Notes: a model not told the origin generated them from the letters alone. DNA of 64,000 nt from a virus (IMGVR_UViG_3300036886_000043:1-64000), one strand, 5' to 3'. Positions 15,787-50,655 are shown, numbered from the stretch's first letter. Program-made: numbers and translations.

Positions 15787-16222
15787 GTTCATTGACCGGC
15801 GCGGAGATAAGGAAAAAGCGCCAGCCTTGGTTGCCGAAGTGGTTCCCGAACCCGCAGCCGACAGGTCATCGTGGAAGAACGTCGGCTACATGATCTGTTT
15901 GATCCCGAGCAATGCTGGCCCAATCGTGGCCGGCAGAGCGGTTGGACTGAGGTCTGATGGGAAATGCTTCATCGGAGACTATTTTCTGTCGCAGATTTAC
16001 CCCGAGCATTTTGACTGGACAGTTGAATCTCGAAAGCGGCTCGACACCTATCTTGGATGCGACTGTGCCGTAGGGATTCAATGTGCTGTCCACAAGACGT
16101 ATGTGCCGCAGTGGATCAAGGCTGACACGCAGCGGCTTGAATTGATTGGGAGTTCTCCTGTACCCGAGGCAATCGAGGCAATGGTCAAGGGGCAAAGGTC
16201 AAGCATACTTAAACCCAGGTGA
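15770..16222 (+). CDS. Hypothetical protein
   Basis: Coupled ORF. Confidence 0.55.
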   Translation: MPSNIKFIDRRGDKEKAPALVAEVVPEPAADRSSWKNVGYMICLIPSNAGPIVAGRAVGLRSDGKCFIGDYFLSQIYPEHFDWTVESRKRLDTYLGCDCAVGIQCAVHKTYVPQWIKADTQRLELIGSSPVPEAIEAMVKGQRSSILKPR

Positions 16223-16833
16223 CGGGCATGTACTTTGAAAGAAAGTTCAGGCTCTTAACCTATGGGCCGGAGATGAACAATACTCTCTCGAAGCCGATTG
16301 AAGAGGCTGAATGGCCGGAGATTCCGAGGCTGTTTGGGTACATGGCCGAAGTTTTGTGGAAAGCTGGTGGGGTTGGGCTGGCGGCTCCGCAGATAGGGTG
16401 CTTTAAGCAGTTCGTGTTGATTGCAAGGAGCCACGGATCGATAATTGGTTTGGTGAACCCGGAGATCACGCGATTGTACGGCAAGGAGATTGAGGGGAAT
16501 GAGGGGTGTTTAAGTATGCCTCCGCCGGGAAATATGTGTAGGGTTCCACGACTTGAGATCGTCGATGTTGAAGCATCTCTTGCGGATACCCCGGATATAC
16601 GCAAGAAGTTGACATTTCATGGTGGAATGGCAAGAATCGTTCAGCACGAACTCGATCATCTGACGGGAACATTCTTTATCGACCGTGTTCCAGAGCGACG
16701 AGGGAAAGAGGTTCTGGGGCGATTTCACAACTGGAAAGCAATGCGCAGGGCGCAAATAAGAAGAAGCGAGGAAAATGAGTATGTCGATGCCGGAGCTTTC
16801 GCCGCTAGTCGCGGCCAATCTCGTATGTCATGA
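16219..16833 (+). CDS. def: Peptide deformylase
   Basis: All three signature motifs: GVGLAAPQIG, EGCLS, QHELDH. Confidence 0.95.
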   Translation: MTGMYFERKFRLLTYGPEMNNTLSKPIEEAEWPEIPRLFGYMAEVLWKAGGVGLAAPQIGCFKQFVLIARSHGSIIGLVNPEITRLYGKEIEGNEGCLSMPPPGNMCRVPRLEIVDVEASLADTPDIRKKLTFHGGMARIVQHELDHLTGTFFIDRVPERRGKEVLGRFHNWKAMRRAQIRRSEENEYVDAGAFAASRGQSRMS

Positions 16834-17023
16834 GTGCGGAACCATTCTGAAGCCGAAGGTAGTGATGGGCCGCAAGGGACAGAAACAGGTTGTCGATCAC
16901 CTGGAGTACGTTTGCAAGAACCCGAAGACCGGGTGTAACTACAAAGTGCAGTCAACCATCATGACCTCAATGGAAATGCTGGCGCTGCGTGATGACGGCA
17001 GTGAAGTGAGGATCGGAGAATGA
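16775..17023 (+). CDS. Small Zn-ribbon protein
   Basis: CHECG...CKN...C. Confidence 0.55.
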   Translation: MSMSMPELSPLVAANLVCHECGTILKPKVVMGRKGQKQVVDHLEYVCKNPKTGCNYKVQSTIMTSMEMLALRDDGSEVRIGE

Positions 17024-17532
17024 ACAGCATAATCTGGCTCTACATCATCGGCGGCTTTTTTGCGCTGCTCGGCGCCTGGACGTTCGTGAGAAAGGTTGTG
17101 TTCATCTCCCGGACTTTGTTTGGCACGATCAATGACCTTGCCAGCACGTTGAAAGATGCAACCGAGATAGCGCGGGCCTACCGCGAAGACCTTGCTATTC
17201 TTCGGCAGATGGCTCAGTCGGGACAAATTCCGAATCCTGGCGATGAGCCGGAATCGATTATTCCGCAGGCTCCAGCGGCTCCGGCCACAATGCCATCGCC
17301 GTATTGGGGCCGCTTCGCAACCAAGACCGAAGAGCCCGATGCGCCGGCTGAATCGGCTGGAGCGGTCGATGTAACCGCAACCGAAGAAGAACTTGTGGAT
17401 CAGGAAAGAAACGAAGCCGCGGTGGACTTTGAGGTAACCGAAAGACAGAAGGCCGCAACTCGTGAAGCGGATCAGGCAAGGGTCAAGGAACTTGCGGACC
17501 TGGGCATCAACGCGAAGCCGGAGGACCAGTGA
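17020..17532 (+). CDS. Membrane-anchored hypothetical protein
   Basis: N-terminal TM segment, acidic tail. Confidence 0.6.
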   Translation: MNSIIWLYIIGGFFALLGAWTFVRKVVFISRTLFGTINDLASTLKDATEIARAYREDLAILRQMAQSGQIPNPGDEPESIIPQAPAAPATMPSPYWGRFATKTEEPDAPAESAGAVDVTATEEELVDQERNEAAVDFEVTERQKAATREADQARVKELADLGINAKPEDQ

Positions 17533-18575: not shown

Positions 18576-20792
18576 ATGTCGATCATTCGAGCCAATAAGT
18601 ACCTCGGCGAGATCATTGAGATCCTCGACATGCACCGGCAGAAGTATCGGGCCGGGGACATCGGGGACGACGAAGCGAGAGCCTCGTTATCATCTGGCGA
18701 CAACGAGTGGATTGACGGCGAGATGTACCATAGCCTGACCGACACGCGATATTTTCTATCCAACTACTACGCCATCCGAACCGAAGATAAAGGCTTCCAA
18801 GGTCTCTACCCATTCTTTGACAGCCAAGAGATTCTCTATGAGGAACTGCGGAAGCTGGAAAAGAAGAATGGCCGTGTACGGGCAATGGTTGCCAAGGCCC
18901 GACGCATGGGGTACACGACTTACATGGTTGGGGAATTCCTTCACAAGACAGTTATACGCTACAAGCACACCGACGCAATCATTGTGTCCCAGGACGAAAA
19001 GGGCGCGAAATACAACATGGGAATGTACGAATCGGCTTTCGACTTCCTGCCGTGGTGGATGAAGCCGAGAGTCAACCTGCATCAGACTGGAGCCCTCTAT
19101 AACTTCGATGAACCGGATGAGAACTTACGAGCACGGCGCCCAGGATTGAAGAACTGGGTGTATGCCGACAACGCTAATCGACCTTCGGGCGTTGGCCGCG
19201 GTCAAGGATTCCGCTGCGGGATGTTGGATGAGTTGGCTTTCTGGAAGAATTCCTCTCAGCTTTCAAAGTCACTGTTGAGGACGTTTGTCGCCCGAGACGG
19301 TTTCTACGTGATGGGATCGACAGGAAACGGTCGTAACGATGCGTGGCACAACTTGTGGAGACGTGCCGAGGCGGGATCAATCGACTGGAATCCGATCTTC
19401 ATTCCGTTCTATCGTAGGCCGAAAACCTACTCGCTTCCGATTCCGAAGGGAGAGGTCTTTGAACTGAGTCCCGAAGAGAAAGAAATGGTGGAGCAGGTTA
19501 AGCAAAAAGAGAACTTCACCATCTCAAAGGAAACGATCAACTGGATGCGGAAAACCAAAGAAGAATTCGTTGCAACGGACGGCGACGACATGCTCTTCTC
19601 TCAGGAATATCCGACCAACGCAGAAGATAGTTTCCAGAACGCGATTATTTCCGCGATCCCGAGAGGCATCATAAATCGCTACAGCAAGCGGACTGTACAG
19701 CCGGTATGGATTGGGGAAATTAGTTTCGACTTCGTAAAGTGGCTTCCCCATCTTTACATGAAGGAACTGAAGCCGGGAGAAGAAGCGCTCTATCCCGAAA
19801 TAGAAAATCGGCTGCATCTTTGGGAAAAGCCGCAACCGGGAGAGAGATATTGCGTCGGTGTAGACGTAGCTCTTGGCCAGAAAGGCGGAGACTATTCTTC
19901 ATGCACGGTGATGAAAATCAGCGCACGCGCACAATTAGACGCGCAGGTAGCGCAGTGGCATGGATACATGGACCCGCACAATCTGACGGACATCGTGCTT
20001 GCGTTAGGCTGGTACTACAACGAAGCTCTGATAGCCGTCGAAGTAAACTCGTTTGGTATGGCGACGAATACGCGGCTGATGCGCGACTACGAGTATGAGC
20101 AGATTTATCGGTTCAAGCGCATGGACCGCCTAAAGCATTTCATGACAGACATCGTTGGATTCTGGACTGATTACAAGTCGAAGAGGACGTTAATCTCCTT
20201 CTTCTCAAAGATGATGCTCGACGACCAAGTGCTCATTCGAGACAAGTACCTGATCGACGAATTGAGGGATTTCACCGAAGATGGAGCGGAAGGTGAAGGG
20301 GCACACGATGACCTGGTGATGAGCGCCATGATTGCTCTCTACTGCGGGCATGAAGGTGAATTTGAAGAGAGACGCCAGAGGCCGGCAGAGGCCGCAAAGG
20401 ACAAAAACAATTACATCGTCTACAAGATGCAGGTGATGGATGGGATGCAGATTCCAGTGAAACTATTTCAGTCTGCATCTCCATTCGAGGCTGAAAAGTT
20501 CGCAAAGAAAAAAATCGGCTCTTACATCATCAACGAGCATGGAGCGATGGCGGATTTGGTTCTCAAGCGAAAGAATGAAAAGGGAGAGTTGGAGTCGGTC
20601 ACAAAGCGCGTGCCAGCGGATTTTCAAAACACTGCGTACAGCCCAATTCACGATAGGCCGGGGACGCGGCAACGAATGTTTGATGAGGGGATTCCTGCCG
20701 AGATGATCGATTCAGAGAGCGCAGCGGAGTTCGATGCTCGGCAGGAAGACGAGGAATTAGTGAGCGATTCAGATTCATGGAAGTGGTCCTGA
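18576..20792 (+). CDS. terL: Terminase large subunit
   Basis: KARRMGYTT Walker A variant, LDELAFW Walker B, STGNG, FSQEYP, GVDVALG and HDDLVMS RNase H-like nuclease. Confidence 0.92.
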   Translation: MSIIRANKYLGEIIEILDMHRQKYRAGDIGDDEARASLSSGDNEWIDGEMYHSLTDTRYFLSNYYAIRTEDKGFQGLYPFFDSQEILYEELRKLEKKNGRVRAMVAKARRMGYTTYMVGEFLHKTVIRYKHTDAIIVSQDEKGAKYNMGMYESAFDFLPWWMKPRVNLHQTGALYNFDEPDENLRARRPGLKNWVYADNANRPSGVGRGQGFRCGMLDELAFWKNSSQLSKSLLRTFVARDGFYVMGSTGNGRNDAWHNLWRRAEAGSIDWNPIFIPFYRRPKTYSLPIPKGEVFELSPEEKEMVEQVKQKENFTISKETINWMRKTKEEFVATDGDDMLFSQEYPTNAEDSFQNAIISAIPRGIINRYSKRTVQPVWIGEISFDFVKWLPHLYMKELKPGEEALYPEIENRLHLWEKPQPGERYCVGVDVALGQKGGDYSSCTVMKISARAQLDAQVAQWHGYMDPHNLTDIVLALGWYYNEALIAVEVNSFGMATNTRLMRDYEYEQIYRFKRMDRLKHFMTDIVGFWTDYKSKRTLISFFSKMMLDDQVLIRDKYLIDELRDFTEDGAEGEGAHDDLVMSAMIALYCGHEGEFEERRQRPAEAAKDKNNYIVYKMQVMDGMQIPVKLFQSASPFEAEKFAKKKIGSYIINEHGAMADLVLKRKNEKGELESVTKRVPADFQNTAYSPIHDRPGTRQRMFDEGIPAEMIDSESAAEFDARQEDEELVSDSDSWKWS

Positions 20793-41247: not shown

Positions 41248-44200
41248 ATGCCGGACGCTGTTTACAAAGAGTACCCTCTCATCTTCCAAAGCAAGGGAAT
41301 CTTCGCCCGCCAGGTCGATGACCTTGTGGACCCGCAAGGGCTTTTGAATGAGGATAATGTTGAGGAGTTGGCAGAAGGCGCTTATGCTCAAAAATTGGGC
41401 AGTGTCCTCGTAAACGCCCAGGGGACCATCGGCCAGCCGGTCTACCCGTTATCGGGGAAAGTGGTCAGCCTATCCAAATTAGGCCAGTTGGCGGGGGCAT
41501 ACGCAAGATATGCGGTTACGGCAGACGGGGCTCTCTGGCGCAGATCGTTGCTTTCGGCGGGGCAGTTCACAAAGATTTCTACATCCTTCAGCGGGAGCCC
41601 TTGCTCGATTCAGTCTTACTGCAACACGGATTTTACCTCAGTATCGACGGAATTTTTTGCAGACGCCGCAGGGATGTTCAAGGACGACGGAACCTTTGCG
41701 GCTCCACAGCAGATGGGCATCTTCCAGCCCCAGTTTCCAGTGCAGGCGCAGGCGCAGCCGCCCTCATCCGTGATACTTGACAACTATGTGACCTCGGCGG
41801 GGAGCTATTCATACACCGGGATCTCTGGAGGAACCAACGCAGGATACGTGAATACGACGATCCCTGCTGGAGTTCCCGCCGCAGGGCTTCAATCGGTAAC
41901 GGTGGTCGATCCTACGCAGCCGGGCCTATTCCAGCTTTTGACTGTTGACTCAGGCGGAAATGCGGAGACGGTCCTTGTCCTCTTAGTGACTCCCACGGGG
42001 TTTGTGGCGAACTTCACAAAGATTCACTCAAGTGGAGTCACGGTCACGAGCGCAGACCTCTCGGTTTCGGTTCCTGCAAGCACTACGGCAACAATAAGTG
42101 CCTCATTCGGCATCCTTCCATGTGGGGCTAAACCGATACTTGTGAACTGGCCCGTTACAAACCAGCCACTACAGCAAGCGGACTACCTTGGCTTGTATCT
42201 TTTTGTCAGTGATCCAACCCAGATACAGAGCATCACGCTCAAGCTCGATTGCGGGGATGGTTCATTCGATAGTGATTATTTCTACAAGGTCATTGCTCAA
42301 GGTCCACTCCAAAATTTGGTATCTTCGGCAACCTCTTCAACAGACCCAACAACTGCATTGACGGACGCGCTCCTGTCAGACAGCCTCAATCTCTACGGCA
42401 ACCAAGCCGGAGGGATCGGTGAACTGAATACCGGGCTCGACAACTGGACACCGCTCCTCTTTCAACTCTCCGACTTTGCCGGCTCAGGCCGTGCGGACTT
42501 CAACGATCCGGTCTACAACTGGGCCAACGTCAACGGCTACCAGATTCAGATTGTCACCAACGACAACACGAGCGTGACGGTCAATCTTGCGGCCCTGGTG
42601 CTCTTTGGCGGAGCCGGTCCAGATACGCTCGGAGGCGTAGCTTACGACTACGTGTGGACGTTTTTCAATCCGGTGGATGGAACAGAGTCAAACCCGTCAA
42701 TGATTGTGACGAACCAGAACCCGCCGAATCAGACGAACCGGGTCTATCCGCGGCGCCAGCCGGTGTTGTTGAACATGGACGTTACCACTTACGGACCATT
42801 AGGGCAGTTGCAAGACGGTCAGATCGGGTATCTGAGAATCTACAGGCGAGGTGGAACACTCGGGGACAACTTCCGAAGGGTAGATCAAATTCCGGTCAAC
42901 ATAGCGGCCGGGGGAATCGTCCAGTACATCGACACAGCGCCGGACTACCTAGTAGCCGGAGCAGATATTGTCTCGTTTACCAACGATGTTCCGGTCCCGA
43001 GCCTACTCCCGGTCCCGGTCAACACGACATTGATGACTCCGATCTATACAGAAAATCAGGTGACGAACGTCTTCCCTGTGTCGATGGCAAACATCTCTGT
43101 GCGCCAGCAGGTAACAATCGGAAGTCCTACTGCAATAGCAAACAACTTTGAAACCGTAATTGTTCTAACCCTCGACGAAGCAAGTTTTACTGCGTTTGTG
43201 CAAAACGCTCATGCGGCTGGAGAGCCGGTACAGGCAAGCTATCAGGTAGGCCAGCCGGTTTATGGAATGGTCATAGCCTTCAACAAGGCATGGTATTGGG
43301 GAGATCCGAATAACCCGTCTACCCTCTACTTCAGCACCGGAAATGCTCCGCAGTACGTGGGAGAGGCGAACAACGTCATTGTCTCCACCCCGGACGACTA
43401 CATCACAACAGTTAAGCCTTACAAGGGAAACATCTTCGTCAGTTGCGTCAAAAGCGGGTGGTGGATGATTCCTCCGGGCTCTCCTGCCAGCCAGCCGCCG
43501 TATCCTACGGCCTGCGTACATGGCTGCGTGGCTCCGTTCGGGGCCGTGGCGACAGAGGAAATGATTCTCTATCAGGCGGCGGACGGAATACGCGCTTTCG
43601 CTGGAGGGGCATCGGAGTATATGAGTCTCCCGATTGAATTCATTTTTCAAGGCGTGGGTTCTACTCCGATTGTCGAAGCGGATCAAACGAAGTTGTCTCA
43701 GACGGTGGCCGCGTATTGGAACTCGATGGTATTTTTCAGCTACATCGGGACGGATGGGAACCGGCATCGAGTGATTGCCCACGCTCAATACAAGAGGTTC
43801 AGGAATGACGACGTGGACGCTCAATGCCTCTTGCTTGAGGCCGACACGAATCAGTTGCTCTATGGAGACTCAAACGGACTGGTTCACATCGACCGTCAGA
43901 ACCTTCCCTATGACCAGGTAAACAGCGGCGGTGTGCTGGCCGCGGGACCGATTGCGATCAATTTGCAAACAGCCTATAGCTTCCAAGGAAGCCCCGCGAA
44001 CCAGAAACAGTATCAGGCCGTTCAGATCGACTGCAACACAGGGGGCCAAACGCTCAACGTCAACCTTCTCTTCAATGATGGAGAGATCACAGTCGCGCTC
44101 GGAACGATCAGCAATGCACAGCGCGGCAAGATCAATCTGCCAGTGAACTTAGGGTTGGGCCAACAGGCGTATAAGATTTCGCTTCAGATCACCGGCAACG

Positions 44201-44589
44201 TGTCTGCCTTCGCGTACCTCTATCAAGCCGCAGTTGAGGCTCTGGTGCTGCCGAGGACGCGGAAAACCGTAGATACCTACGACCTGAATTGCGGATTTGC
44301 AGACTCGAAATACTGCAAGGATTTTTGGGCACAGTACACGGCTACGGCTCCGATCAACGTGCAAGTGTATTATGACGACAACGCAACCCCAGGGTTCACT
44401 TTCACGATGCCTCAAGCCGGAGGCGTCAGGAACCCTCTTAGGGTAAGATTACCGGCAGTCTCATTCAGGACGATCCGCGTGGTAGCGGAATCGACAGGGG
44501 ACTTTCTCTGGTGGCCCGATACCTGTCTTTGGGTCAAGCCCCAGTGCGCTTCGAGGGGCTATGAGAAGGTGTTGATTGTTGAGAACTAA
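41248..44589 (+). CDS. Tail nozzle/tubular protein B-like virion protein
   Basis: 1113 aa beta-rich; Y.Y..TF....GTESNPS, IYRRGGT, LYFS, HGCVAP beta-propeller patterns. Confidence 0.7.
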   Translation: MPDAVYKEYPLIFQSKGIFARQVDDLVDPQGLLNEDNVEELAEGAYAQKLGSVLVNAQGTIGQPVYPLSGKVVSLSKLGQLAGAYARYAVTADGALWRRSLLSAGQFTKISTSFSGSPCSIQSYCNTDFTSVSTEFFADAAGMFKDDGTFAAPQQMGIFQPQFPVQAQAQPPSSVILDNYVTSAGSYSYTGISGGTNAGYVNTTIPAGVPAAGLQSVTVVDPTQPGLFQLLTVDSGGNAETVLVLLVTPTGFVANFTKIHSSGVTVTSADLSVSVPASTTATISASFGILPCGAKPILVNWPVTNQPLQQADYLGLYLFVSDPTQIQSITLKLDCGDGSFDSDYFYKVIAQGPLQNLVSSATSSTDPTTALTDALLSDSLNLYGNQAGGIGELNTGLDNWTPLLFQLSDFAGSGRADFNDPVYNWANVNGYQIQIVTNDNTSVTVNLAALVLFGGAGPDTLGGVAYDYVWTFFNPVDGTESNPSMIVTNQNPPNQTNRVYPRRQPVLLNMDVTTYGPLGQLQDGQIGYLRIYRRGGTLGDNFRRVDQIPVNIAAGGIVQYIDTAPDYLVAGADIVSFTNDVPVPSLLPVPVNTTLMTPIYTENQVTNVFPVSMANISVRQQVTIGSPTAIANNFETVIVLTLDEASFTAFVQNAHAAGEPVQASYQVGQPVYGMVIAFNKAWYWGDPNNPSTLYFSTGNAPQYVGEANNVIVSTPDDYITTVKPYKGNIFVSCVKSGWWMIPPGSPASQPPYPTACVHGCVAPFGAVATEEMILYQAADGIRAFAGGASEYMSLPIEFIFQGVGSTPIVEADQTKLSQTVAAYWNSMVFFSYIGTDGNRHRVIAHAQYKRFRNDDVDAQCLLLEADTNQLLYGDSNGLVHIDRQNLPYDQVNSGGVLAAGPIAINLQTAYSFQGSPANQKQYQAVQIDCNTGGQTLNVNLLFNDGEITVALGTISNAQRGKINLPVNLGLGQQAYKISLQITGNVSAFAYLYQAAVEALVLPRTRKTVDTYDLNCGFADSKYCKDFWAQYTATAPINVQVYYDDNATPGFTFTMPQAGGVRNPLRVRLPAVSFRTIRVVAESTGDFLWWPDTCLWVKPQCASRGYEKVLIVEN

Positions 44590-44615
44590 GGTGTATGCTG
44601 TATCTGAGGTGATTT

Positions 44616-44783
44616 ATGCTCAACATCATTTTGGTAATTCTGATGTTTCTGTGCGGATTTGGCGGATATGCGATCCCAGTTACGCAGCCGGCCGGTTTCC
44701 GGTATGGCGTCGGTCTTCTCGGCGCTGTGCTTTTTATCTTGTTTTGCCTCATCAACCTTGGCCTGATTCACCCAGGGCTATAA
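44616..44783 (+). CDS. Small two-TM membrane protein
   Basis: GAGG RBS; MLNIILVILMFLCG...GLLGAVLFILFCLINLG. Confidence 0.6.
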   Translation: MLNIILVILMFLCGFGGYAIPVTQPAGFRYGVGLLGAVLFILFCLINLGLIHPGL

Positions 44784-44786
44784 GCG

Positions 44787-44951
44787 ATGATTATCTTGCT
44801 CATCATTGTTCTAGTTCTGCTCTTTGGCGGCGGCTTCGGTTACTACGGCCACACTCAATGGGGCGCGAATAACGTCTATGCAGGGCCGGGAATCGGCCTT
44901 GGAACCATCCTGATTATCCTGCTGATTCTGTTCCTGCTCGGCGTCATTTGA
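44787..44951 (+). CDS. DUF3309-like small membrane protein
   Basis: MIILLIIVLVLLFGGGFGYYG...WG...GIGLGTILIILLILFLLG. Confidence 0.65.
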   Translation: MIILLIIVLVLLFGGGFGYYGHTQWGANNVYAGPGIGLGTILIILLILFLLGVI

Positions 44952-45046
44952 GTCGTGTCCGCATGTGCATGTAGGACAGTGTTTAGTCGTTCCCGCTCTG
45001 TGGAAATCTCTCCGGTTGTCGAGAAGGGGTTACTATTCAGGTAGCC

Positions 45047-45075
45047 TTGACGCAAATCATTTTCCGTGCGATGAT
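45047..45075 (+). promoter_or_regulatory. Promoter of tRNA block 1
   Basis: TTGACG-17-GATGAT with TGn extension; ATG 6 nt after the -10. Confidence 0.7.
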
Positions 45076-45081
45076 TTTGAT

Positions 45082-45153
45082 ATGAGATTTGACCGCAACA
45101 GTTTATGCCTCTCCTATTCACTCCTGTCGAGTGACGGGGAGGCTGCGGTCTGA
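45082..45153 (+). CDS. Attenuator leader peptide 1 MRFDRNSLCLSYSLLSSDGEAAV
   Basis: 11 consecutive Ser/Leu/Cys/Tyr codons; precedes terminator and the Leu/Cys/Ser/Tyr tRNAs. Confidence 0.8.
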   Translation: MRFDRNSLCLSYSLLSSDGEAAV

Positions 45154-45180
45154 TTCCAAAGTTTGGAATTTCAGCGAAGC

Positions 45181-45204
45181 GGCCTCCAGAAATGGAGGCT
45201 TTTT
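45181..45204 (+). terminator. Attenuator terminator 1
   Basis: GGCCTCCA-GAAA-TGGAGGCT-TTTT; alternative pairing 45138-45146 with 45179-45187. Confidence 0.85.
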
Positions 45205-45209
45205 GTTGT

Positions 45210-45293
45210 GCGGGATTGGCGAAACGGCAGCCGCGCCCGATTTAAGATCGGGTGTCTTAGGACGTGGGAGTTCAAGTCTCCCATCCCGCACCA
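45210..45293 (+). tRNA. tRNA-Leu(TAA)
   Basis: Cloverleaf, long variable arm, encoded CCA. Confidence 0.9.
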
Positions 45294-45294
45294 T

Positions 45295-45371
45295 GTATCG
45301 GAAGGTAAAGTTTTGGAACCAGTGGTCCGCAAAACCACTTTTAGCCGGTGGGACTCCGGCCCGGTACTCCA
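45295..45371 (+). tRNA. tRNA-Cys(GCA), atypical T-loop
   Basis: GTGGT-CCGCAAA-ACCAC; U73; CCA. Confidence 0.8.
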
Positions 45372-45383
45372 AAGTTTAGTAGT

Positions 45384-45462
45384 GCTCGCGTAGCCCAATT
45401 TGGCAGGAGGCACTTCATTCAAAACGAAGACAGTGCTGGTTCAAATCCAGCCGCGAGTACCA
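45384..45462 (+). tRNA. tRNA-Leu(CAA), short variable region
   Basis: Loop TTCAAAA; TTCAAAT T-loop; CCA. Confidence 0.85.
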
Positions 45463-45470
45463 AAATATGT

Positions 45471-45549
45471 GCCCCGTTAGCCCAATTGGCAGGAGGCGTC
45501 TGACTTAGGATCAGAACAGTGATGAGTTCGAATCTCTCACGGGGTACCA
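45471..45549 (+). tRNA. tRNA-Leu(TAG), short variable region
   Basis: TCTGA-CTTAGGA-TCAGA; CCA. Confidence 0.85.
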
Positions 45550-45593
45550 AAATTTAGATTGCAACGGGTACCAATCTACTGTAAAATATTGGT

Positions 45594-46193
45594 ATGAATG
45601 GTGATTCGAGTATTTGCAATGGATGTGGTTTAAGTGAGCCAGAAGTGAGATTTCGATTGCGGAAGGCGAACGGGAAAACTTACAGAAAACACTTGTGTAC
45701 AAAATGTGATGATGAATATCAAAAGAAGTACACTAAACCTCAAGGCGTAAAAGATAGGAATAGAAAATCGTATCTGAAAAGAAAGGAGAGAAGAGCACGG
45801 GGAGAAATAGTCGAGATTTTCCTTCTTGAGGACTGTCGAAGAATTGACAGAAAAAAAGGTATCAAATCCGATTTAGACTCTGAATATATTGCGGAGATAA
45901 TAAAGGATGGATGCGCGTATTGCGGAGATATAGAATCACGCATTGGGCTTGATCGGATAGATAATTCACTGGGCCACATGAAGGGAAATGTTAACGCCTG
46001 TTGTATGAGATGTAATCTTATTCGTAGGGATATGCCATACGAAGCATGGCTGATTGTAGCGCCCACGATGAAGATTGCGAGAGAATCAAAAGCGTTTGGG
46101 AATTGGAATGTGCTTTTTGGAAACAAGAAGAAAACGGAGCGCGGGCCGGACGATAAGGCAACGGGTTGCTACCCCGCACAGCCGCAAGGCTGA
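45594..46193 (+). CDS. HNH-type endonuclease inside tRNA array
   Basis: CAYCG...GLDRIDNSLGH...NVNACC..CN; AT-rich; own promoter TTGCAA-17-TAAAAT at 45559-45587. Confidence 0.8.
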   Translation: MNGDSSICNGCGLSEPEVRFRLRKANGKTYRKHLCTKCDDEYQKKYTKPQGVKDRNRKSYLKRKERRARGEIVEIFLLEDCRRIDRKKGIKSDLDSEYIAEIIKDGCAYCGDIESRIGLDRIDNSLGHMKGNVNACCMRCNLIRRDMPYEAWLIVAPTMKIARESKAFGNWNVLFGNKKKTERGPDDKATGCYPAQPQG

Positions 46194-46221
46194 CTGAGTT
46201 TGACTCTCAGGCGCTCCGCCA
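46136..46221 (+). tRNA. tRNA-Ser(GCT)
   Basis: Long variable arm, G73, CCA. Confidence 0.85.
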
Positions 46222-46225
46222 GTTC

Positions 46226-46310
46226 GGAAGGTACCGCTGAAAGGTCGGCAAACGGTCCTGAAAACCGTGGCTCCTTCGGGATGGGCGTTCGATTCGTCTA
46301 CCTTCCGCCA
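46226..46310 (+). tRNA. tRNA-Ser(TGA)
   Basis: ACGGT-CCTGAAA-ACCGT; long variable arm; G73. Confidence 0.85.
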
Positions 46311-46315
46311 AGTTT

Positions 46316-46402
46316 GGGAGTGATGCTCTGTAGGGAGAGCAGCAGGCCGTAACCCTGCCGTCACTTGTGGCATAGGGGGTTCGATTCCCTCCACTCCCAC
46401 CA
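46316..46402 (+). tRNA. tRNA-Tyr(GTA)
   Basis: GCAGG-CCGTAAC-CCTGC; long variable arm. Confidence 0.85.
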
Positions 46403-46405
46403 TAC

Positions 46406-46434
46406 TTGTCAACACGGAAGAGTAGTGGTATACT
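46406..46434 (+). promoter_or_regulatory. Internal promoter for fMet/Asp/Glu tRNAs, no leader peptide or terminator
   Basis: TTGTCA-17-TATACT with TGn extension. Confidence 0.7.
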
Positions 46435-46439
46435 GAAAT

Positions 46440-46514
46440 CGCGGGTTGGTAGCGCAGCGTCATACGTCAGGCTCATACCCTGAAGATCCGGTGCAAATCC
46501 GGTACCCGCAACCA
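46440..46514 (+). tRNA. tRNA-Met(CAT), initiator-like
   Basis: C1:A72 mismatch; TCAGG-CTCATAC-CCTGA. Confidence 0.8.
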
Positions 46515-46515
46515 A

Positions 46516-46591
46516 GGTCACGTCGTCTAACTGGAAGGATACTTCCCTGTCTAGGAAGCTGGCGCGGGTTCGATTCCCGTCGTGATCGCCA
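46516..46591 (+). tRNA. tRNA-Asp(GTC)
   Basis: CTTCC-CTGTCTA-GGAAG; G73. Confidence 0.9.
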
Positions 46592-46597
46592 AGTTTA

Positions 46598-46676
46598 GCC
46601 GATGCACTCTGTACTGGATTCGGAGCACTCCCCTTCAAGGAGTTGGATGCGAGTTCGATTCTCGTCGTCGGCGCCA
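46598..46676 (+). tRNA. tRNA-Glu(TTC)
   Basis: ACTCC-CCTTCAA-GGAGT. Confidence 0.85.
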
Positions 46677-46684
46677 AGTTTTAC

Positions 46685-46761
46685 GGGGTCACCGTCTAAT
46701 TGGTCTGGACGCCAGATTCTCAATCTGGAAACTGTGAGTTCGATCCTCACTGGCCCTACCA
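46685..46761 (+). tRNA. tRNA-Glu(CTC)
   Basis: CCAGA-TTCTCAA-TCTGG. Confidence 0.9.
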
Positions 46762-46770
46762 GAAAATGAT

Positions 46771-46799
46771 TTGACAGAAATTGCGAACGGCGGTACAGT
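46771..46799 (+). promoter_or_regulatory. Promoter of tRNA block 2
   Basis: TTGACA-17-TACAGT. Confidence 0.8.
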
Positions 46800-46809
46800 A
46801 GAAAACGAG

Positions 46810-46878
46810 ATGAAAAACCGAGTCAATCACGGATTTACACCAGCGACGGCGCAACCGACGCAGGGTAATCCTATGTAG
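46810..46878 (+). CDS. Attenuator leader peptide 2 MKNRVNHGFTPATAQPTQGNPM
   Basis: Contains codons for all 12 downstream tRNAs; followed by antiterminator/terminator. Confidence 0.85.
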   Translation: MKNRVNHGFTPATAQPTQGNPM

Positions 46879-46903
46879 CGGCTCGTGGAGTTTGAAGCAA
46901 AGC

Positions 46904-46935
46904 GCCCACCGAGCCAATCAGCCGGTGGGTTTTTT
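46904..46935 (+). terminator. Attenuator terminator 2
   Basis: GCCCACCG/CGGTGGGT + T-run; alternative pairing 46880-46888 with 46906-46915. Confidence 0.85.
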
Positions 46936-46943
46936 GTTGATGT

Positions 46944-47019
46944 TCCAGCGTAGCAAAAAGGTAATGCGCCGCACTGTTAATGCGGAAATGTGCAGGTTCG
47001 AGTCCTGCCGCTGGAGCCA
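46944..47019 (+). tRNA. tRNA-Asn(GTT)
   Basis: CCGCA-CTGTTAA-TGCGG. Confidence 0.92.
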
Positions 47020-47028
47020 GTTTGAAGT

Positions 47029-47103
47029 TGCCCGTTCGTTCATGTGGCAGGACGGCTGACTCTGGATCAGCGGAGCGAGGTTCAAGTCCTCGACGGGCAG
47101 CCA
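47029..47103 (+). tRNA. tRNA-Gln(CTG)
   Basis: GCTGA-CTCTGGA-TCAGC. Confidence 0.92.
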
Positions 47104-47111
47104 AGTTTTAC

Positions 47112-47187
47112 AGGGAGATGGCCGAGCGGCTTAGGCGACAGCCTTTGGAACTGTCTCAGGTAGGTTCGACTCCTACTCTCCCTGCCA
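47112..47187 (+). tRNA. tRNA-Gln(TTG)
   Basis: Loop CTTTGGA; G73. Confidence 0.85.
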
Positions 47188-47188
47188 T

Positions 47189-47264
47189 GCGGACGTAGCT
47201 CAATTGGTAGAGCACAGCGTTGCCAATGCTGAGGTTGCCGGATCGTTGCCGGTCGTTCGCTCCA
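47189..47264 (+). tRNA. tRNA-Gly(GCC)
   Basis: CAGCG-TTGCCAA-TGCTG; U73; atypical T-loop. Confidence 0.88.
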
Positions 47265-47349
47265 AATTTTGGAGGTTGACATGCCGCACAGGTATCATTT
47301 CAATGCCGATCTCCGAGAAGTGTACAGAAGGCTGGCGGGACAATTTCGA

Positions 47350-47424
47350 GCACCGTTAGTTGAGTCGGCACAACACGACACTCGTAACGTCGAGGCTCCG
47401 GTTCGAGGCCGGGACGGTGCTCCA
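47350..47424 (+). tRNA. tRNA-Thr(CGT)
   Basis: Loop CTCGTAA; CCA. Confidence 0.82.
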
Positions 47425-47441
47425 GAATTGGAAGGTGAGTG

Positions 47442-47978
47442 ATGAATTTGATGCGGAAGCCGGTATTGCAGTTGAATGCAAGCTACGAGCCGCTTCGCAT
47501 CATCGCGGCAAGAAGGGCATTGACGCTCATAACCAAGGGCGTAGCCGTGGTGGAAGTGCCAACCAGCACAGTAGTCTATCCTGGCATCTACTTGCCCTCA
47601 GTGATTCGGTTGCGGACTTACCGGCATGTGCCTATTAGGATGCAGGTGATGAGCCGCAAGAACATTCTCCTTCGGGATGGCGGCCGCTGCATGTATTGCG
47701 GACAGAGGTCAAACGAATTGACGCTTGACCATGTGATTCCGCGTTCCCGTGGCGGATTGAATACGTGGGACAATCTTGTGGCTTGCTGCAAACGCGACAA
47801 TCACAAGAAGAACGACAGGACTCCAGAGGAAGCGGGAATGAACTTGATTCACAGGCCGCTTCCGCAAACGATCCACACGCCGCGGTTTGTTCTACGGTCT
47901 ATGGGTTTGGAAGTAAATGAGTGGAGCCCGTACTTGTGGGCCGACTCCGAAGGCGACAAGAAGTATGCGTTTAACTGA
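47442..47978 (+). CDS. HNH endonuclease (McrA/COG1403-like)
   Basis: VLQLNASYEP, PSVIRL, RD...CMYCG...TLDHVIPRSRGG..TWDNLVACC...N. Confidence 0.92.
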   Translation: MNLMRKPVLQLNASYEPLRIIAARRALTLITKGVAVVEVPTSTVVYPGIYLPSVIRLRTYRHVPIRMQVMSRKNILLRDGGRCMYCGQRSNELTLDHVIPRSRGGLNTWDNLVACCKRDNHKKNDRTPEEAGMNLIHRPLPQTIHTPRFVLRSMGLEVNEWSPYLWADSEGDKKYAFN

Positions 47979-48050
47979 GCCGGGTGAACATCGAATGTTG
48001 CGGGCGCTTGTATCGCTTGCTAGTGGGTTCGACTCCCACATCCGGCCCCA
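47979..48050 (+). tRNA. tRNA-Thr(TGT)
   Basis: GGGCG-CTTGTAT-CGCTT; short D-arm. Confidence 0.75.
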
Positions 48051-48060
48051 ACAAGTTCAT

Positions 48061-48135
48061 GGGGAATATCGTTCAGCGATAGGACGCTAAGTTGTGGCCT
48101 TAGTCACCGCAGTTTGATTCTGCGTATTCCCCCCA
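48061..48135 (+). tRNA. tRNA-His(GTG)
   Basis: G-1:C73; CTAAG-TTGTGGC-CTTAG. Confidence 0.88.
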
Positions 48136-48148
48136 AGTTTTAAGTAGT

Positions 48149-48223
48149 GGGCGTGTGGTGCTAATGGGAACACATCCGGCCTGCACCCGGAAGTTGAGAG
48201 TTCGATTCTCTCCATGTCCACCA
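48149..48223 (+). tRNA. tRNA-Ala(TGC)
   Basis: G3:U70; TCCGG-CCTGCAC-CCGGA. Confidence 0.9.
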
Positions 48224-48229
48224 AGTTTT

Positions 48230-48305
48230 GCCGACTTAGCTGATGAGGTCATAGCGGTCGCCTGAAGAGCGATAGAAGCCCGCTCGATACGGGCAGTCGG
48301 CACCA
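48230..48305 (+). tRNA. tRNA-Phe(GAA)
   Basis: GTCGC-CTGAAGA-GCGAT. Confidence 0.88.
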
Positions 48306-48306
48306 T

Positions 48307-48384
48307 CGGTGTGTAGCGTAGTCTGCTTAACGCGCTCCGTTCGGGACGGAGAGATCGCAGGTCGAAATCCTGCCACGCCGACCA
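48307..48384 (+). tRNA. tRNA-Pro(CGG)
   Basis: CTCCG-TTCGGGA-CGGAG. Confidence 0.9.
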
Positions 48385-48390
48385 GTTTAC

Positions 48391-48464
48391 CGGGGTGTAG
48401 TGTAAAGGAAACATCCGTGGCCTGGGACCACGTGTTGGGCTTTCGAGATGCCCCACCCCGACCA
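48391..48464 (+). tRNA. tRNA-Pro(TGG)
   Basis: CGTGG-CCTGGGA-CCACG. Confidence 0.82.
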
Positions 48465-48470
48465 ATTTAC

Positions 48471-48545
48471 GGCCCGTTCGTTCAATGGACAGGACTTCGG
48501 ATTACGAATCCGACAATCAGAGTTCGACTCTCTGGCGGGCTACCA
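48471..48545 (+). tRNA. tRNA-Arg(ACG)
   Basis: TCGGA-TTACGAA-TCCGA. Confidence 0.92.
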
Positions 48546-48546
48546 C

Positions 48547-48575
48547 TTGCAAGAAAAGAAAAGTTGATGTACAGT
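48547..48575 (+). promoter_or_regulatory. Promoter of tRNA block 3
   Basis: TTGCAA-17-TACAGT; ATG 7 nt after the -10. Confidence 0.75.
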
Positions 48576-48582
48576 GGAATTC

Positions 48583-48651
48583 ATGCAGATCAGGACCAAA
48601 CACGGAATAACCAGAATGACCAAGCGGGTCATTTGGGGGATCGTGTGTTGA
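48583..48651 (+). CDS. Attenuator leader peptide 3 MQIRTKHGITRMTKRVIWGIVC
   Basis: Contains codons for all 12 downstream tRNAs; stop codon overlaps antiterminator strand. Confidence 0.85.
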   Translation: MQIRTKHGITRMTKRVIWGIVC

Positions 48652-48677
48652 GGGTCTGAGCATTTTGGTACGCACAG

Positions 48678-48702
48678 ACCTTCGCTCAGGCGAGGGTTTT
48701 TT
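48678..48702 (+). terminator. Attenuator terminator 3
   Basis: ACCTTCGC-TCAG-GCGAGGGT + T-run; alternative pairing 48650-48658 with 48675-48683. Confidence 0.85.
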
Positions 48703-48718
48703 ATTGCTCTTTGAAAAT

Positions 48719-48793
48719 AGGGGAGTGCTGGCGGCACAGCGGTTGGTCTCCAAAACCAACGTCACGGCGGTTCGAGTCCGCTCTCCCCTGCCA
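48719..48793 (+). tRNA. tRNA-Trp(CCA)
   Basis: TTGGT-CTCCAAA-ACCAA; G73. Confidence 0.85.
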
Positions 48794-48798
48794 TTTTT

Positions 48799-48867
48799 GG
48801 CACGTACCCAAGGCGGGAAGCGATCCTCATAAGATCGTAAACTGGTTCGAGTCCAGGCGTGCTACCA
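48799..48867 (+). tRNA. tRNA-Met(CAT) elongator (or Ile2), compact D-arm
   Basis: CGATC-CTCATAA-GATCG. Confidence 0.72.
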
Positions 48868-48872
48868 GTTTT

Positions 48873-48966
48873 GGGCGATAGCACCGGCCGTGCGGCGGAG
48901 TCTTATAAACTCTGGAGAGCGCCAGATTAGCGCAACGGGAAGGATCGACACCTTCATCGCCTACCA
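48873..48966 (+). tRNA. tRNA-Ile(TAT) with long variable arm
   Basis: GGAGT-CTTATAA-ACTCT; extra GCGC/GCGC stem; CCA. Confidence 0.72.
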
Positions 48967-48969
48967 TGT

Positions 48970-49044
48970 GGGTCGCAGATGTTTTTGGCGGCATACCCGG
49001 CTCTTACCCGGAATGGCGGGGTTCGACTCCCCGGCGACCCACCA
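48970..49044 (+). tRNA. tRNA-Lys(CTT)
   Basis: Loop CTCTTAC. Confidence 0.85.
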
Positions 49045-49053
49045 TCTGTTTTC

Positions 49054-49127
49054 GGACTGCGAGTGTGATGGTGCATAACGCCCTTTTAAGGCGTTTGGAT
49101 AGAGTTCGATTCTCTAGCGGTCCACCA
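49054..49127 (+). tRNA. tRNA-Lys(TTT)
   Basis: ACGCC-CTTTTAA-GGCGT. Confidence 0.85.
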
Positions 49128-49128
49128 T

Positions 49129-49203
49129 GGCCCTATAGCTCAAGGGGATAGAGTGCGGTCTTCTAAGCCGTCGATCACCGTTCGACTCGGTGTAGGGCTC
49201 CCA
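49129..49203 (+). tRNA. tRNA-Arg(TCT)
   Basis: GCGGT-CTTCTAA-GCCGT. Confidence 0.9.
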
Positions 49204-49208
49204 GTTTT

Positions 49209-49285
49209 GCCGCTGTATCTCTCCGGTTTCCTAAACCGGCAAGAGTAGTTGGATGACGCCGGTTCGACTCCGGCCAGCGGCCCCA
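49209..49285 (+). tRNA. Non-canonical tRNA-Arg(CCT) lacking a 5' D-arm
   Basis: 7-bp acceptor, 7-nt linker, CCGGT-TTCCTAA-ACCGG, 18-nt extra region, canonical T-arm, CCA. Confidence 0.7.
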
Positions 49286-49290
49286 GGTTT

Positions 49291-49368
49291 GCTGCCGTAT
49301 TCGGTTCTGGTTCCGAACCAGAGGGCCGTAGATGGAGAAGGCAGGTTCGAGTCCTGTCGGCAGCGCCA
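49291..49368 (+). tRNA. Non-canonical tRNA-Arg(CCG) lacking a 5' D-arm
   Basis: 7-bp acceptor, 8-nt linker, TCTGG-TTCCGAA-CCAGA, 18-nt extra region, canonical T-arm, G73, CCA. Confidence 0.7.
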
Positions 49369-49373
49369 GTTTA

Positions 49374-49449
49374 GCCGGGTTCGCCCAAAGGCTTAGGGCC
49401 GATGGTCTACACCCATCTGATAGGGGTTCGAGTCCTCTACCCGGCACCA
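49374..49449 (+). tRNA. tRNA-Val(TAC)
   Basis: GATGG-TCTACAC-CCATC. Confidence 0.88.
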
Positions 49450-49454
49450 AGATT

Positions 49455-49528
49455 GTCGATGTAGCTCAGTGGTAGAGCACCGCAATGGTAATGCGGCGAC
49501 GAGGGTCCGATTCCCTCCTTCGGCTCCA
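49455..49528 (+). tRNA. tRNA-Thr(GGT)
   Basis: CCGCA-ATGGTAA-TGCGG. Confidence 0.88.
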
Positions 49529-49532
49529 TTTT

Positions 49533-49607
49533 GCCGATGTAGCTCAATGGCAGAGCATTCGCTTGATAAGCGAAAGGTCAGTGGATCAGTACCACTCATC
49601 GGCACCA
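49533..49607 (+). tRNA. tRNA-Ile(GAT)
   Basis: TTCGC-TTGATAA-GCGAA; atypical T-loop. Confidence 0.88.
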
Positions 49608-49613
49608 AGTTGA

Positions 49614-49688
49614 GCGGGATTAGCCAAGTGGAAAGGCAATGGGCTTCCAACCCATTATGCGTCGGTTCAACCCCGACATCCCGCTCCA
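49614..49688 (+). tRNA. tRNA-Gly(TCC)
   Basis: ATGGG-CTTCCAA-CCCAT; U73. Confidence 0.92.
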
Positions 49689-49719
49689 CTTTTCTGCCAA
49701 CAAGCGTTATACTACTTTC

Positions 49720-50655
49720 ATGCCGAAGTCGCCCAAACTCGGAAAGATTACATTCTCCTCTTTGTCTCTTCCAGAGCAAATCCAGATGAGCAACTTGCAG
49801 GATGCCGTGAACATCCTCGGCGGTCATTCGGGGGAAGTCGAGTTAAGCAATCATCTAAACCTCGGCGGGAACAAAATAACGAACGTGGCGGCGCCGGCCG
49901 CGGATAGCGATGTGTTGACGAGCGGAGCGGCAGAAACAAAGTATTCCGCGGCGGCTTTACGTCCGCAGCTTGAGTCGAGCGGGACGCATCCATTCGTAGG
50001 CTACAGACAAGTCAATAATCAAGGACAGCGCGAAAAAACCTCAAGCTGGCTCAACGAGCTTCTCTCTACCCCTCCGAACTCCAACAACATCAATCCCATC
50101 GTCAGTTCTTCGGGAGGCTCAACGAGCGTCACGATCCCGGCCAGCATCTTGCAGATGGGGGATGGAACCACGCGATACCTTCCTTCGCGGACGGACACGT
50201 TGACCAACCCGGCAAGCTACTCCATTACCTCGTTTACGATTGCTTTGGGAGTGGCAACGGTGGTTTTGTCCTCGACTCCATCGCCGGCTTTGGCTGCGCC
50301 TACGGTGGTGTACATTTCAGGGACGAGTGAGATTGACGGGACGTTCCCGATTGCAAGCATTGTCAGCCCGACGACGTTCACGATCAACGTAAGCAGTGGG
50401 GTGTCTGGCACTGGAGGGACGGTAGAGACGGGAGGAATCTGCTACTATTACCTCAACAAGTCATTCCAGAAGGTGATGCTATCCGTCCTTCCGTCATCTT
50501 CAGACACCCCGTTTAGGCGTCTCGGAATTTCTGGAGACGGATACCAGTTGCTTGCGGTTGTCAGCATCAATTCGAGCGGAACTGTCCAAGTGGGGACGGC
50601 CGGAGGGGGAACGCCGAGCGTCGTTAGCACAGCCAATGCAGGAAGCAGGTTCTAA
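49720..50655 (+). CDS. Probable tail/fiber-associated virion protein
   Basis: LNLGGNKITNVAAP motif; Ser/Thr-rich beta domain. Confidence 0.6.
   Translation: MPKSPKLGKITFSSLSLPEQIQMSNLQDAVNILGGHSGEVELSNHLNLGGNKITNVAAPAADSDVLTSGAAETKYSAAALRPQLESSGTHPFVGYRQVNNQGQREKTSSWLNELLSTPPNSNNINPIVSSSGGSTSVTIPASILQMGDGTTRYLPSRTDTLTNPASYSITSFTIALGVATVVLSSTPSPALAAPTVVYISGTSEIDGTFPIASIVSPTTFTINVSSGVSGTGGTVETGGICYYYLNKSFQKVMLSVLPSSSDTPFRRLGISGDGYQLLAVVSINSSGTVQVGTAGGGTPSVVSTANAGSRF

Follow-up and report, generated by a model that had tools for sequence, protein, structure and literature searches.

Probable codon-matched leader-peptide attenuators ahead of three tRNA blocks in a phage tRNA array

In the enterobacteria, multivalent transcription attenuators include thrL, which responds to Thr and Ile, and ilvL of the ilvGMEDA operon, which responds to Ile, Leu and Val; trpL, hisL, leuL and pheL also belong to this group of leaders. 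Phage tRNA genes, by the usual view, are simply expressed to fit the codon usage of the phage or to replace tRNAs lost to host defences, and to our knowledge little has been established about how they are controlled. Here we consider an array of 35 tRNA genes in IMGVR_UViG_3300036886_000043:1-64000, a stretch of viral DNA of 64,000 nucleotides (nt), referred to below as the window, that opens a complete viral contig of 97,230 bp bearing terminal repeats. Three blocks of this array probably stand behind ribosome-mediated (leader-peptide) transcription attenuators, each of which would gauge the speed at which the codons of its own block are decoded. The original prediction had read the locus in this way, and every sequence-level hallmark of such attenuation that was tested proved to be present.

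It is informative to set the locus beside the closest described systems. As a textbook comparison, the likeness to attenuators of the thrL and ilvL type extends to a promoter followed by a short open reading frame (ORF) of regulatory codons, to mutually exclusive helices 1:2, 2:3 and 3:4 that end in an intrinsic terminator, to the favouring of termination by a ribosome at the stop codon, and to the sensing of several amino acids by a single leader. In contrast to that type, it is tRNA genes rather than biosynthetic enzymes that would be regulated here, each leader covers four to nine amino acids (4-9) at the level of isoacceptors and samples the tRNAs of its block, and the mRNAs would be leaderless. 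There is no sequence or Rfam relationship between the window leaders and the enterobacterial ones; a cmscan search of positions 44000-50500 (E<=1) returned no leader family (Thr, Leu, Trp, His, Phe), no T-box and no other cis-regulatory family, only tRNA-like matches. The pheST operon with its pheM leader and the T-boxes of synthetase genes are similar in another respect, in that a part of the translation apparatus is governed by the state of its own tRNA by way of a terminator and an antiterminator. However, the pheM leader responds to a single amino acid in regulating a synthetase, and T-boxes, which have no match here, bind uncharged tRNA directly and without a ribosome. The nearest printed case to the tRNA blocks of the window comes from the long tRNA arrays of cyanobacteria: in Anabaena PCC 7120 the trn operon, an additional tRNA array, is normally silent and comes on upon impairment of translation, with RtcB co-regulated or encoded nearby (PMC8421152). 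Its induction by translational stress acts through promoter repeats and a repressor (PMC8421152, PMC10272220), and attenuators, leader peptides and terminators go unmentioned in both papers. A full-text search of the literature found no published attenuation on tRNA genes and no codon-sensing switch on phage tRNA genes, and the evidence presented here supports the view that this design would extend known attenuation logic to such genes.

All 35 tRNA genes lie on the plus strand, at 45210-49688, a count that agrees with the one originally given and was reached with ARAGORN (default and relaxed settings), Rfam and four anticodons read by hand. The array is divided into four transcription units, namely blocks 1 to 3 and one sub-block. 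The three blocks have a common layout, just as had been described, in which a -35 element, a 17-nt spacer and a -10 element are followed 6-10 nt further on by an ATG, a 22-23-codon ORF, a terminator and the first tRNA gene. The elements are these, with tRNAs named by amino acid and anticodon:

45047-45075, plus strand: predicted promoter of leader 1, with -35 TTGACG, 17-nt spacer, TG before the -10 element, and -10 GATGAT.
45082-45153, plus strand: leader ORF 1, 23 codons, its ATG 6 nt after the -10 element.
45181-45209, plus strand: predicted intrinsic terminator 1, an 8-bp GC-rich stem with a 4-nt loop and a T-tract, ending 1 nt before tRNA-Leu.
45210-46402, plus strand: tRNA block 1, 7 tRNAs (Leu-taa, Cys-gca, Leu-caa, Leu-tag, Ser-gct, Ser-tga, Tyr-gta).
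46771-46799, plus strand: predicted promoter of leader 2 (TTGACA, 17 nt, TACAGT), near-identical in the related contig L006.
46810-46878, plus strand: leader ORF 2, 22 codons, sampling all 12 block-2 tRNAs.
46904-46940, plus strand: predicted intrinsic terminator 2 and T-tract, missed by a simple terminator scan on account of its 11-nt loop.
46944-48545, plus strand: tRNA block 2, 12 tRNAs (Asn, two Gln, Gly-gcc, Thr-cgt, Thr-tgt, His, Ala, Phe, two Pro, Arg-acg).
48547-48575, plus strand: predicted promoter of leader 3 (TTGCAA, 17 nt, TACAGT), with homologous promoters in relatives.
48583-48651, plus strand: leader ORF 3, 22 codons, putatively leaderless, sampling all 12 tRNAs of its block, including those for ATA, AGA, AGG and CGG.
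48677-48706, plus strand: predicted intrinsic terminator 3 with its T-tract, found by a stem-loop scan and a duplex search.
48719-49688, plus strand: tRNA block 3, 12 tRNAs (Trp, Met, Ile-tat, two Lys, Arg-tct, Arg-cct, Arg-ccg, Val, Thr-ggt, Ile-gat, Gly-tcc).

The sigma70-type promoters that had been claimed were found at all three leaders with 17-nt spacers, although that of leader 3 agrees with the consensus at only 8 of 12 positions. In every case the leader ATG lies at or within ~4 nt of the predicted start site, and the position of the first ATG, 6 nt past the -10 element, indicates that the leader 1 mRNA would be leaderless. Each terminator has a T-tract, and by narrower coordinates the terminators lie at 45181-45200, 46904-46930 and 48677-48698. 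Because the first tRNA gene follows 10-20 nt past each terminator, with no promoter-like site in between, blocks 1-3 should be expressible only by readthrough.

The match between leader codons and the tRNAs downstream is the observation on which this reading most depends. Scored by strict wobble rules and with start and stop codons excluded, leader 3 matches its own block at 17 of 21 codons (18/21 at the amino-acid level), compared with 1 and 2 strict matches to the other attenuated blocks, and leader 2 does so at 16 of 21 (18/21 at the amino-acid level), compared with 0 and 3. Leader 1 is less pronounced, with 8/22 strict and 11/22 amino-acid-level matches to its own block, which become 11/22 and 14/22 when the sub-block is included; its strict matches to the other attenuated blocks number 4 and 2. 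Nonetheless, codons 7-17 of leader 1 are exclusively Ser, Leu, Cys and Tyr, a set that makes up 18.7% of phage codons. Against the phage's own codon usage the binomial P values are 1.7e-2, 7e-5 and 5e-7 for leaders 1, 2 and 3, giving a joint probability, as the product of the three, of ~1e-12. When the window's 189 ATG-initiated ORFs of 18-30 codons were scored against the three blocks, leaders 3 and 2 came first and second. The earlier claim that each leader is built from the codons of its own block holds in full for leaders 2 and 3, which sample all 12 tRNAs of theirs (simulated P 4e-4 and 5e-5, respectively), and falls short in leader 1, which reaches 6 of 7 and has no codon for Leu-caa.

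The match extends to isoacceptors and to the reading frame. Among the Thr, Gly and Arg codons, whose tRNAs are split between blocks 2 and 3, 13 of 14 fit the leader's own block, against 7.1 expected; the assignments proposed at the outset, ACA/ACG in leader 2 and ACC in leader 3 for Thr, CGA in leader 2 and AGG/AGA/CGG in leader 3 for Arg, were borne out. For wider comparisons we used a curated set of four phages (the window phage and the related contigs L006, L016 and L028) that together carry 12 leaders. Nine of these 12 leaders sample every tRNA of their block, and in each of the 12 leader-block sets the top score is that of the own block. The codon match is confirmed and lies far beyond chance. 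Matches amount to 160/272 (59%) in frame but only to 75/250 (30%) and 57/251 (23%) in the two other frames, and because the match is frame-specific, the leader sequence is under selection as codons.

These figures bear directly on a simpler account, in which the terminators act as leaky insulation from one tRNA unit to the next, none of the small ORFs is a working sensor, and the match arises from chance or composition. Taken alone, leader 1 has the modest significance that this account would lead one to expect (P 1.7e-2), some of the alternative pairings described below are no better than those of shuffled sequences, and an AT-rich phage with a similar tRNA order (L050/L051) does without leaders. 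However, chance would have to produce the joint probability, the frame-specific signal and the complete rosters of leaders 2 and 3, and would leave unexplained why start codon and frame are kept in phages with only 52-78% identity in an anchor protein and why Asp and Glu covary between leader and block; we consider this account extremely improbable.

If the leaders are attenuators, their RNA should be able to adopt alternative structures, and this was examined by duplex searches in each sequence separately (RNAalifold, run on a MAFFT alignment of leader 1, misaligned the diverged ORFs and gave only partial structure). The minimum free energy (MFE) fold of every leader contains a long 5' hairpin, in which the early codons (segment 1) pair with nucleotides at the stop codon or immediately past it (segment 2), together with the terminator. 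The segments in the window are these:

45090-45115, plus strand: segment 1 of attenuator 1, the protector strand, inside the sensor codons; pairs with segment 2 in the MFE fold (free energy, dG, -27.1; z -4.1).
45137-45151, plus strand: segment 2 of attenuator 1, the 5' strand of the antiterminator, at the ORF end up to the stop codon; duplex with the terminator 5' arm of dG -20.6, z -3.6.
46880-46894, plus strand: segment 2 of attenuator 2, starting 2 nt past the stop codon; in the MFE fold it is paired to codons 3-5 (46818-46824).
48648-48662, plus strand: segment 2 of attenuator 3, overlapping the stop codon; its partner is either the stretch of codons 1-7 (48583-48603) or the terminator 5' arm (dG -18.7, z -2.9).

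The antiterminator strand that had been placed at the ORF end is therefore found in all three window leaders, where it ends at, starts 2 nt past, or overlaps the stop codon. More generally, segment 2 at or over the stop codon pairs with the terminator 5' arm in 13 of 13 leaders examined, with dG of -13.5 to -25.6 kcal/mol. The helices 1:2, 2:3 and 3:4 are mutually exclusive, with strong support in leaders 1 and 3 and weak support in leader 2. Leaders homologous to leader 1 have three unrelated terminator stems across phages, each accompanied by a complementary segment 2: GGAGGC with GCCUCC, a GGCCGG-type strand with a CCGGUC-type arm, and GGCGGG with CCCGCC. Helices 2:3 and 3:4 covary across this class. 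The last 4-6 leader codons are unmatched to the block, which their constraint by structure explains.

Folding with the ribosome footprint masked behaves as attenuation would require. Stalls at early or middle codons lower the terminator probability to <0.1 in window leaders 1 and 3, and the same is seen in leader 1 of L006 and in leader 3 of L016 (in the latter with the whole 5' side masked); with the mask at the last codons or the stop, it returns to ~0.99 in this equilibrium model. The original statement that a stall on any listed codon would permit readthrough needs narrowing accordingly: in the folding model the antiterminator is freed only by stalls at early and middle codons, and the last 3-5 codons are structural. 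The 5'-terminal AUG of leader 3 itself lies within helix 1:2, and by inference only a ribosome that loads during transcription would be able to test the codons of this leader.

From these elements we infer a mechanism that includes translation of the leader, coupling of the ribosome to the polymerase, a direction of response and a natural trigger. Polymerase would start at the promoter, and a ribosome would load on the 5'-terminal or near-terminal AUG and trail behind it. With fast decoding the ribosome would reach the stop codon and cover segment 2, the terminator hairpin would form, and transcription would end ~10 nt before the first tRNA. Were a charged tRNA of the block scarce, the ribosome would stall at an early or middle codon and cover segment 1, leaving segment 2 free to pair with the terminator 5' arm, and the polymerase would read into the tRNA block. 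If there were no translation, 1:2 and 3:4 would both form and transcription would again terminate. The net effect would be a demand-driven and self-limiting synthesis, with a block being transcribed until its tRNAs, together with those of the host, decode the leader quickly; loss of the matching host tRNAs would likewise switch the block on.

The fourth transcription unit lacks this arrangement:

46406-46761, plus strand: sub-block, a predicted promoter without the leader design and 4 tRNAs (initiator-like Met-cat, Asp-gtc, Glu-ttc, Glu-ctc).

The tRNA genes of the sub-block occupy 46440-46761 with no leader ORF ahead of them, and its promoter (TTGTCA, 17 nt, TATACT, TG-extended) is strong, with a predicted transcription start at about the first tRNA base. 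An initiator-like tRNA could not be sensed by stalling during elongation, and its place behind an unattenuated promoter fits the logic of attenuation. In this tRNA-Met (within 46406-46514), C1 is opposite A72, and, given a start site at about its first base, it may not require 5' processing.

Comparison with related phages adds evidence of a different kind. Relatives were sought with two anchors, a 1113-residue virion protein encoded just upstream of the array and an HNH endonuclease encoded between Thr-cgt and Thr-tgt. Full homologous arrays occur in L006, L016 and L028, and further arrays or parts of arrays in L002, L032-L034, L038 and L040-L044; beyond the curated set, homologous leaders were located with an automatic block finder and then read by eye, and the P values of the finder were discarded because it often lumped blocks. 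At least 12 related contigs share the layout, as does the cultured phage Tunturi_5. Related arrays keep the ATG, a TTGACA-type promoter with 17-nt spacing, the terminator and the amino-acid set of the leader, and start codon and frame are retained across phages in which the anchor protein is only 52-78% identical. Leader 1 has homologues in L002, L006, L016, L028, L032, L033, L038, L042 and Tunturi_5, and the -35 hexamer and 17-nt spacer of its promoter are kept in L006, L016, L028 and L042. When leader 2 is compared among the four curated phages, the first few codons and a late Gly-Asn pair are kept, and the middle is reordered with the amino acids still those of block 2; in the leader-3 alignment, insertions and deletions are in multiples of three. 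Because the order of the sensor codons varies while the amino-acid set stays, selection acts on codon content and not on the peptide. The AT-rich phage L050/L051 has a related tRNA order and the HNH gene, and neither leader ORFs nor attenuator terminators were found in it; hence the leader design is not universal. Streptomyces phage Daubenski was considered as a comparator and proved unsuitable, with scattered single tRNAs between small genes.

Leader codons were also expected to covary with tRNA content in related arrays, and those for Asp and Glu do so. In L028, L042, L043 and Tunturi_5 it is block 3, not the leaderless sub-block, that contains the tRNA genes for Glu and Asp, and in these four phages leader 3 contains Glu and Asp codons, at positions that differ in each; leader 3 of the window, L006, L016, L033, L034, L040 and L041 contains none. 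Within the curated phages, Asp or Glu codons occur in 3 of 4 leaders that have Asp/Glu tRNA genes downstream and in 0 of 8 others, a contrast with a Fisher value of 0.018, calculated by hand on phages that are not phylogenetically independent. In L042, which has five Leu isoacceptors, five different codons for Leu are used in leader 1.

Tunturiibacter phage Tunturi_5, the best cultured-phage match of the HNH protein, is a jumbo phage, a 309-kb myovirus of the acidobacterium Tunturiibacter psychrotolerans. Its published description lists 43 tRNA genes and mentions neither an attenuator nor a leader (PMC11924767). Its tRNA blocks have the same composition as those described above, each behind a short ORF and a terminator, and the own block scores highest for each of its leaders (P 3e-5, 7e-4 and 1e-4); leader 3 is annotated as the hypothetical protein gp308. 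Since the design is present in a cultured phage with its host, it can be tested at the bench. As the only cultured-phage relatives of the virion protein are those of Tunturi_1 and Tunturi_2, it seems reasonable to assume an acidobacterial host for the window phage as well; a profile search of genome contigs with the anchor-protein alignment gave no match and no host lead.

It is also worth considering that the leaders may be translated and may sense decoding speed and yet have another output, acting in trans through terminated RNAs or peptides in the manner of rnTrpL and peTrpL, or else affecting the processing or stability of a precursor. Termination would yield plenty of short leader transcripts of ~120 nt, the genome-wide palindrome inside leader 1 that is discussed below hints at an added processing or binding step, and a leader-derived small RNA and peptide are described for trpL in Sinorhizobium. 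However, the blocks begin 10-20 nt past terminators with no promoter of their own, which requires that controlled readthrough occur; segment 2 changes along with the terminator arm, which only an antiterminator would need; and it is the composition of the peptides, not their sequence, that is conserved. We therefore regard an output in trans, or at the level of the precursor, as unlikely.

A second possibility is that readthrough is set by a protein or RNA factor, such as a phage antiterminator, a protein binding the palindrome, or a T-box-like pairing of tRNA with the leader. The element that invites this idea is the following:

45154-45168, no strand assigned: a copy of a genome-wide 15-bp palindrome, between the leader 1 stop codon and terminator.

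This palindrome, TTCCAAANTTTGGAA, has 21 copies in the window (<=2 mismatches), against 0.38 expected, with examples at 2670, 6703, 14227, 45154, 47260, 52153 and 58585. Its conservation at leader 1, here and in L002, L006 and L016, is what a binding factor would predict; yet it is absent from leader 1 of L028 and L042 and from leaders 2 and 3, the leaders match no T-box or other cis-regulatory Rfam family at E<=1, and a factor would leave the in-frame codon roster unexplained. Control by such a factor is accordingly very improbable in our estimation. Apart from this question, the palindrome copy at 47260 provides the GGAG ahead of a small ORF, and many of the tRNA spacers have the sequence CCA-AGTTT, similar to one half of this motif.

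Several observations weigh against ribosome-mediated attenuation, or at least against its uniform operation at all three blocks. Attenuator 2 is the weakest of the three, its duplex between segment 2 and the terminator arm having a dG of -13.5 and a z of only -0.5; masking gives mixed values for leader 2 of the window and favours the terminator at every ribosome position in leader 2 of L006; and for several of the antiterminator or protector duplexes shuffled sequences do just as well (z -0.5 to +0.8). The codon match has its exceptions, in that GGA in leader 2 belongs to block 3, ACC for Thr persists in leader 3 of L028 and L042, which have Thr-ggt in block 2, and of L016, which lacks it, ATA persists where Ile-tat is absent, and leader 3 of L044 has two Glu codons with no Glu tRNA gene in its block. 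In addition, leaderless initiation is assumed for all three window leaders, and an attenuator of this kind also responds to amino-acid starvation, a state in which extra tRNA would not help.

A related matter is what the attenuators, if such they are, would sense during infection. The circuit would respond to any slow decoding, including an under-supply early in infection, and would in that sense be a supply feedback first and a sensor of depletion second. Phage tRNA sets replace host tRNAs lost during infection, according to a counter-defence study concerned with which tRNAs evade defence (PMC11555353). It is conceivable, although we advance this only tentatively, that the attenuators form an inducible, block-wise counter-defence that senses which host tRNAs anticodon nucleases or other tRNA-targeting immunity have cleaved or withdrawn and turns on just the replacement block corresponding to them. 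The switch would also open on cleavage of host tRNAs, although such cleavage is not required to explain it, and the link to anticodon nucleases is circumstantial. It consists in the RNA-repair or quality-control genes that relatives have within their arrays: RtcB is encoded between block 2 and leader 3 in L006 (18233-19412) and next to block 2 in Tunturi_5, and a Ro60 homologue (TROVE and vWA domains) with its own promoter lies between block 2 and leader 3 in L016 (18316-19662) and L028 (18186-19535 and 17201-18098), in the latter with Y-RNA-like (YrlA) matches beside it. A search of the whole genome of the window phage found neither RtcB nor TROVE.

Should the attenuation reading hold, this would be the first case known to us of tRNA genes regulated by the decoding speed of their own codons, and it would constitute a direct supply-and-demand loop for the translation machinery. 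Classical attenuation would be extended from 1-3 amino acids to 4-9, with isoacceptor resolution, and the leaders would offer a natural design for multi-codon sensors.

Some features of the array lie outside these questions. Block 1 contains an inserted ORF at 45594-46193, between Leu-tag and Ser-gct, and two small hydrophobic ORFs, noted by eye, lie just upstream of attenuator 1 at 44617-44952. Two tRNA genes of block 3, tRNA-Arg(cct) at 49208-49282 and tRNA-Arg(ccg) at 49290-49365, have normal acceptor, anticodon and T arms and no D arm; the anticodon stem is extended and lies just 7-8 nt from the acceptor stem, and the anticodon arm is followed by a long segment. This D-armless form is shared by Arg tct, cct and ccg of L006 (~20023-20262), and the Arg tRNA genes of L028 are canonical (Rfam 52-69 bits).

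The HNH endonuclease ORF of block 2 occupies 47442-47978, between Thr-cgt and Thr-tgt, and in every related array seen the gene keeps its position between Thr-cgt and the next Thr tRNA gene, which is tgt except in L028, L042, L043 and Tunturi_5, where it is ggt. In the three other curated arrays the HNH genes lie at 16929-17477 (L006), 16126-16674 (L016) and 16440-16976 (L028), with 55-71% identity, and the closest relatives of the protein (at least 45% identity) are mostly encoded, in IMG/VR, within large tRNA arrays of phages. Crossing tRNA-Thr(cgt) is a small ORF (47281-47441) that has a GGAGG ribosome-binding site and whose stop codon overlaps the HNH ATG at 47442; its first ~19 residues are largely kept in L006 and the remainder is divergent. 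Because processing of the tRNA would cut the HNH mRNA, expression of the endonuclease may depend on unprocessed transcripts. In L016 (17068-17625), the 5' and 3' parts of a tRNA-Pro gene are apparently split by an HNH-like ORF, with a complete Pro-tgg gene also between them, which suggests insertion of a homing endonuclease into a tRNA gene. The same phage has a short HNH remnant at 20500-20560, where the window has Thr-ggt.

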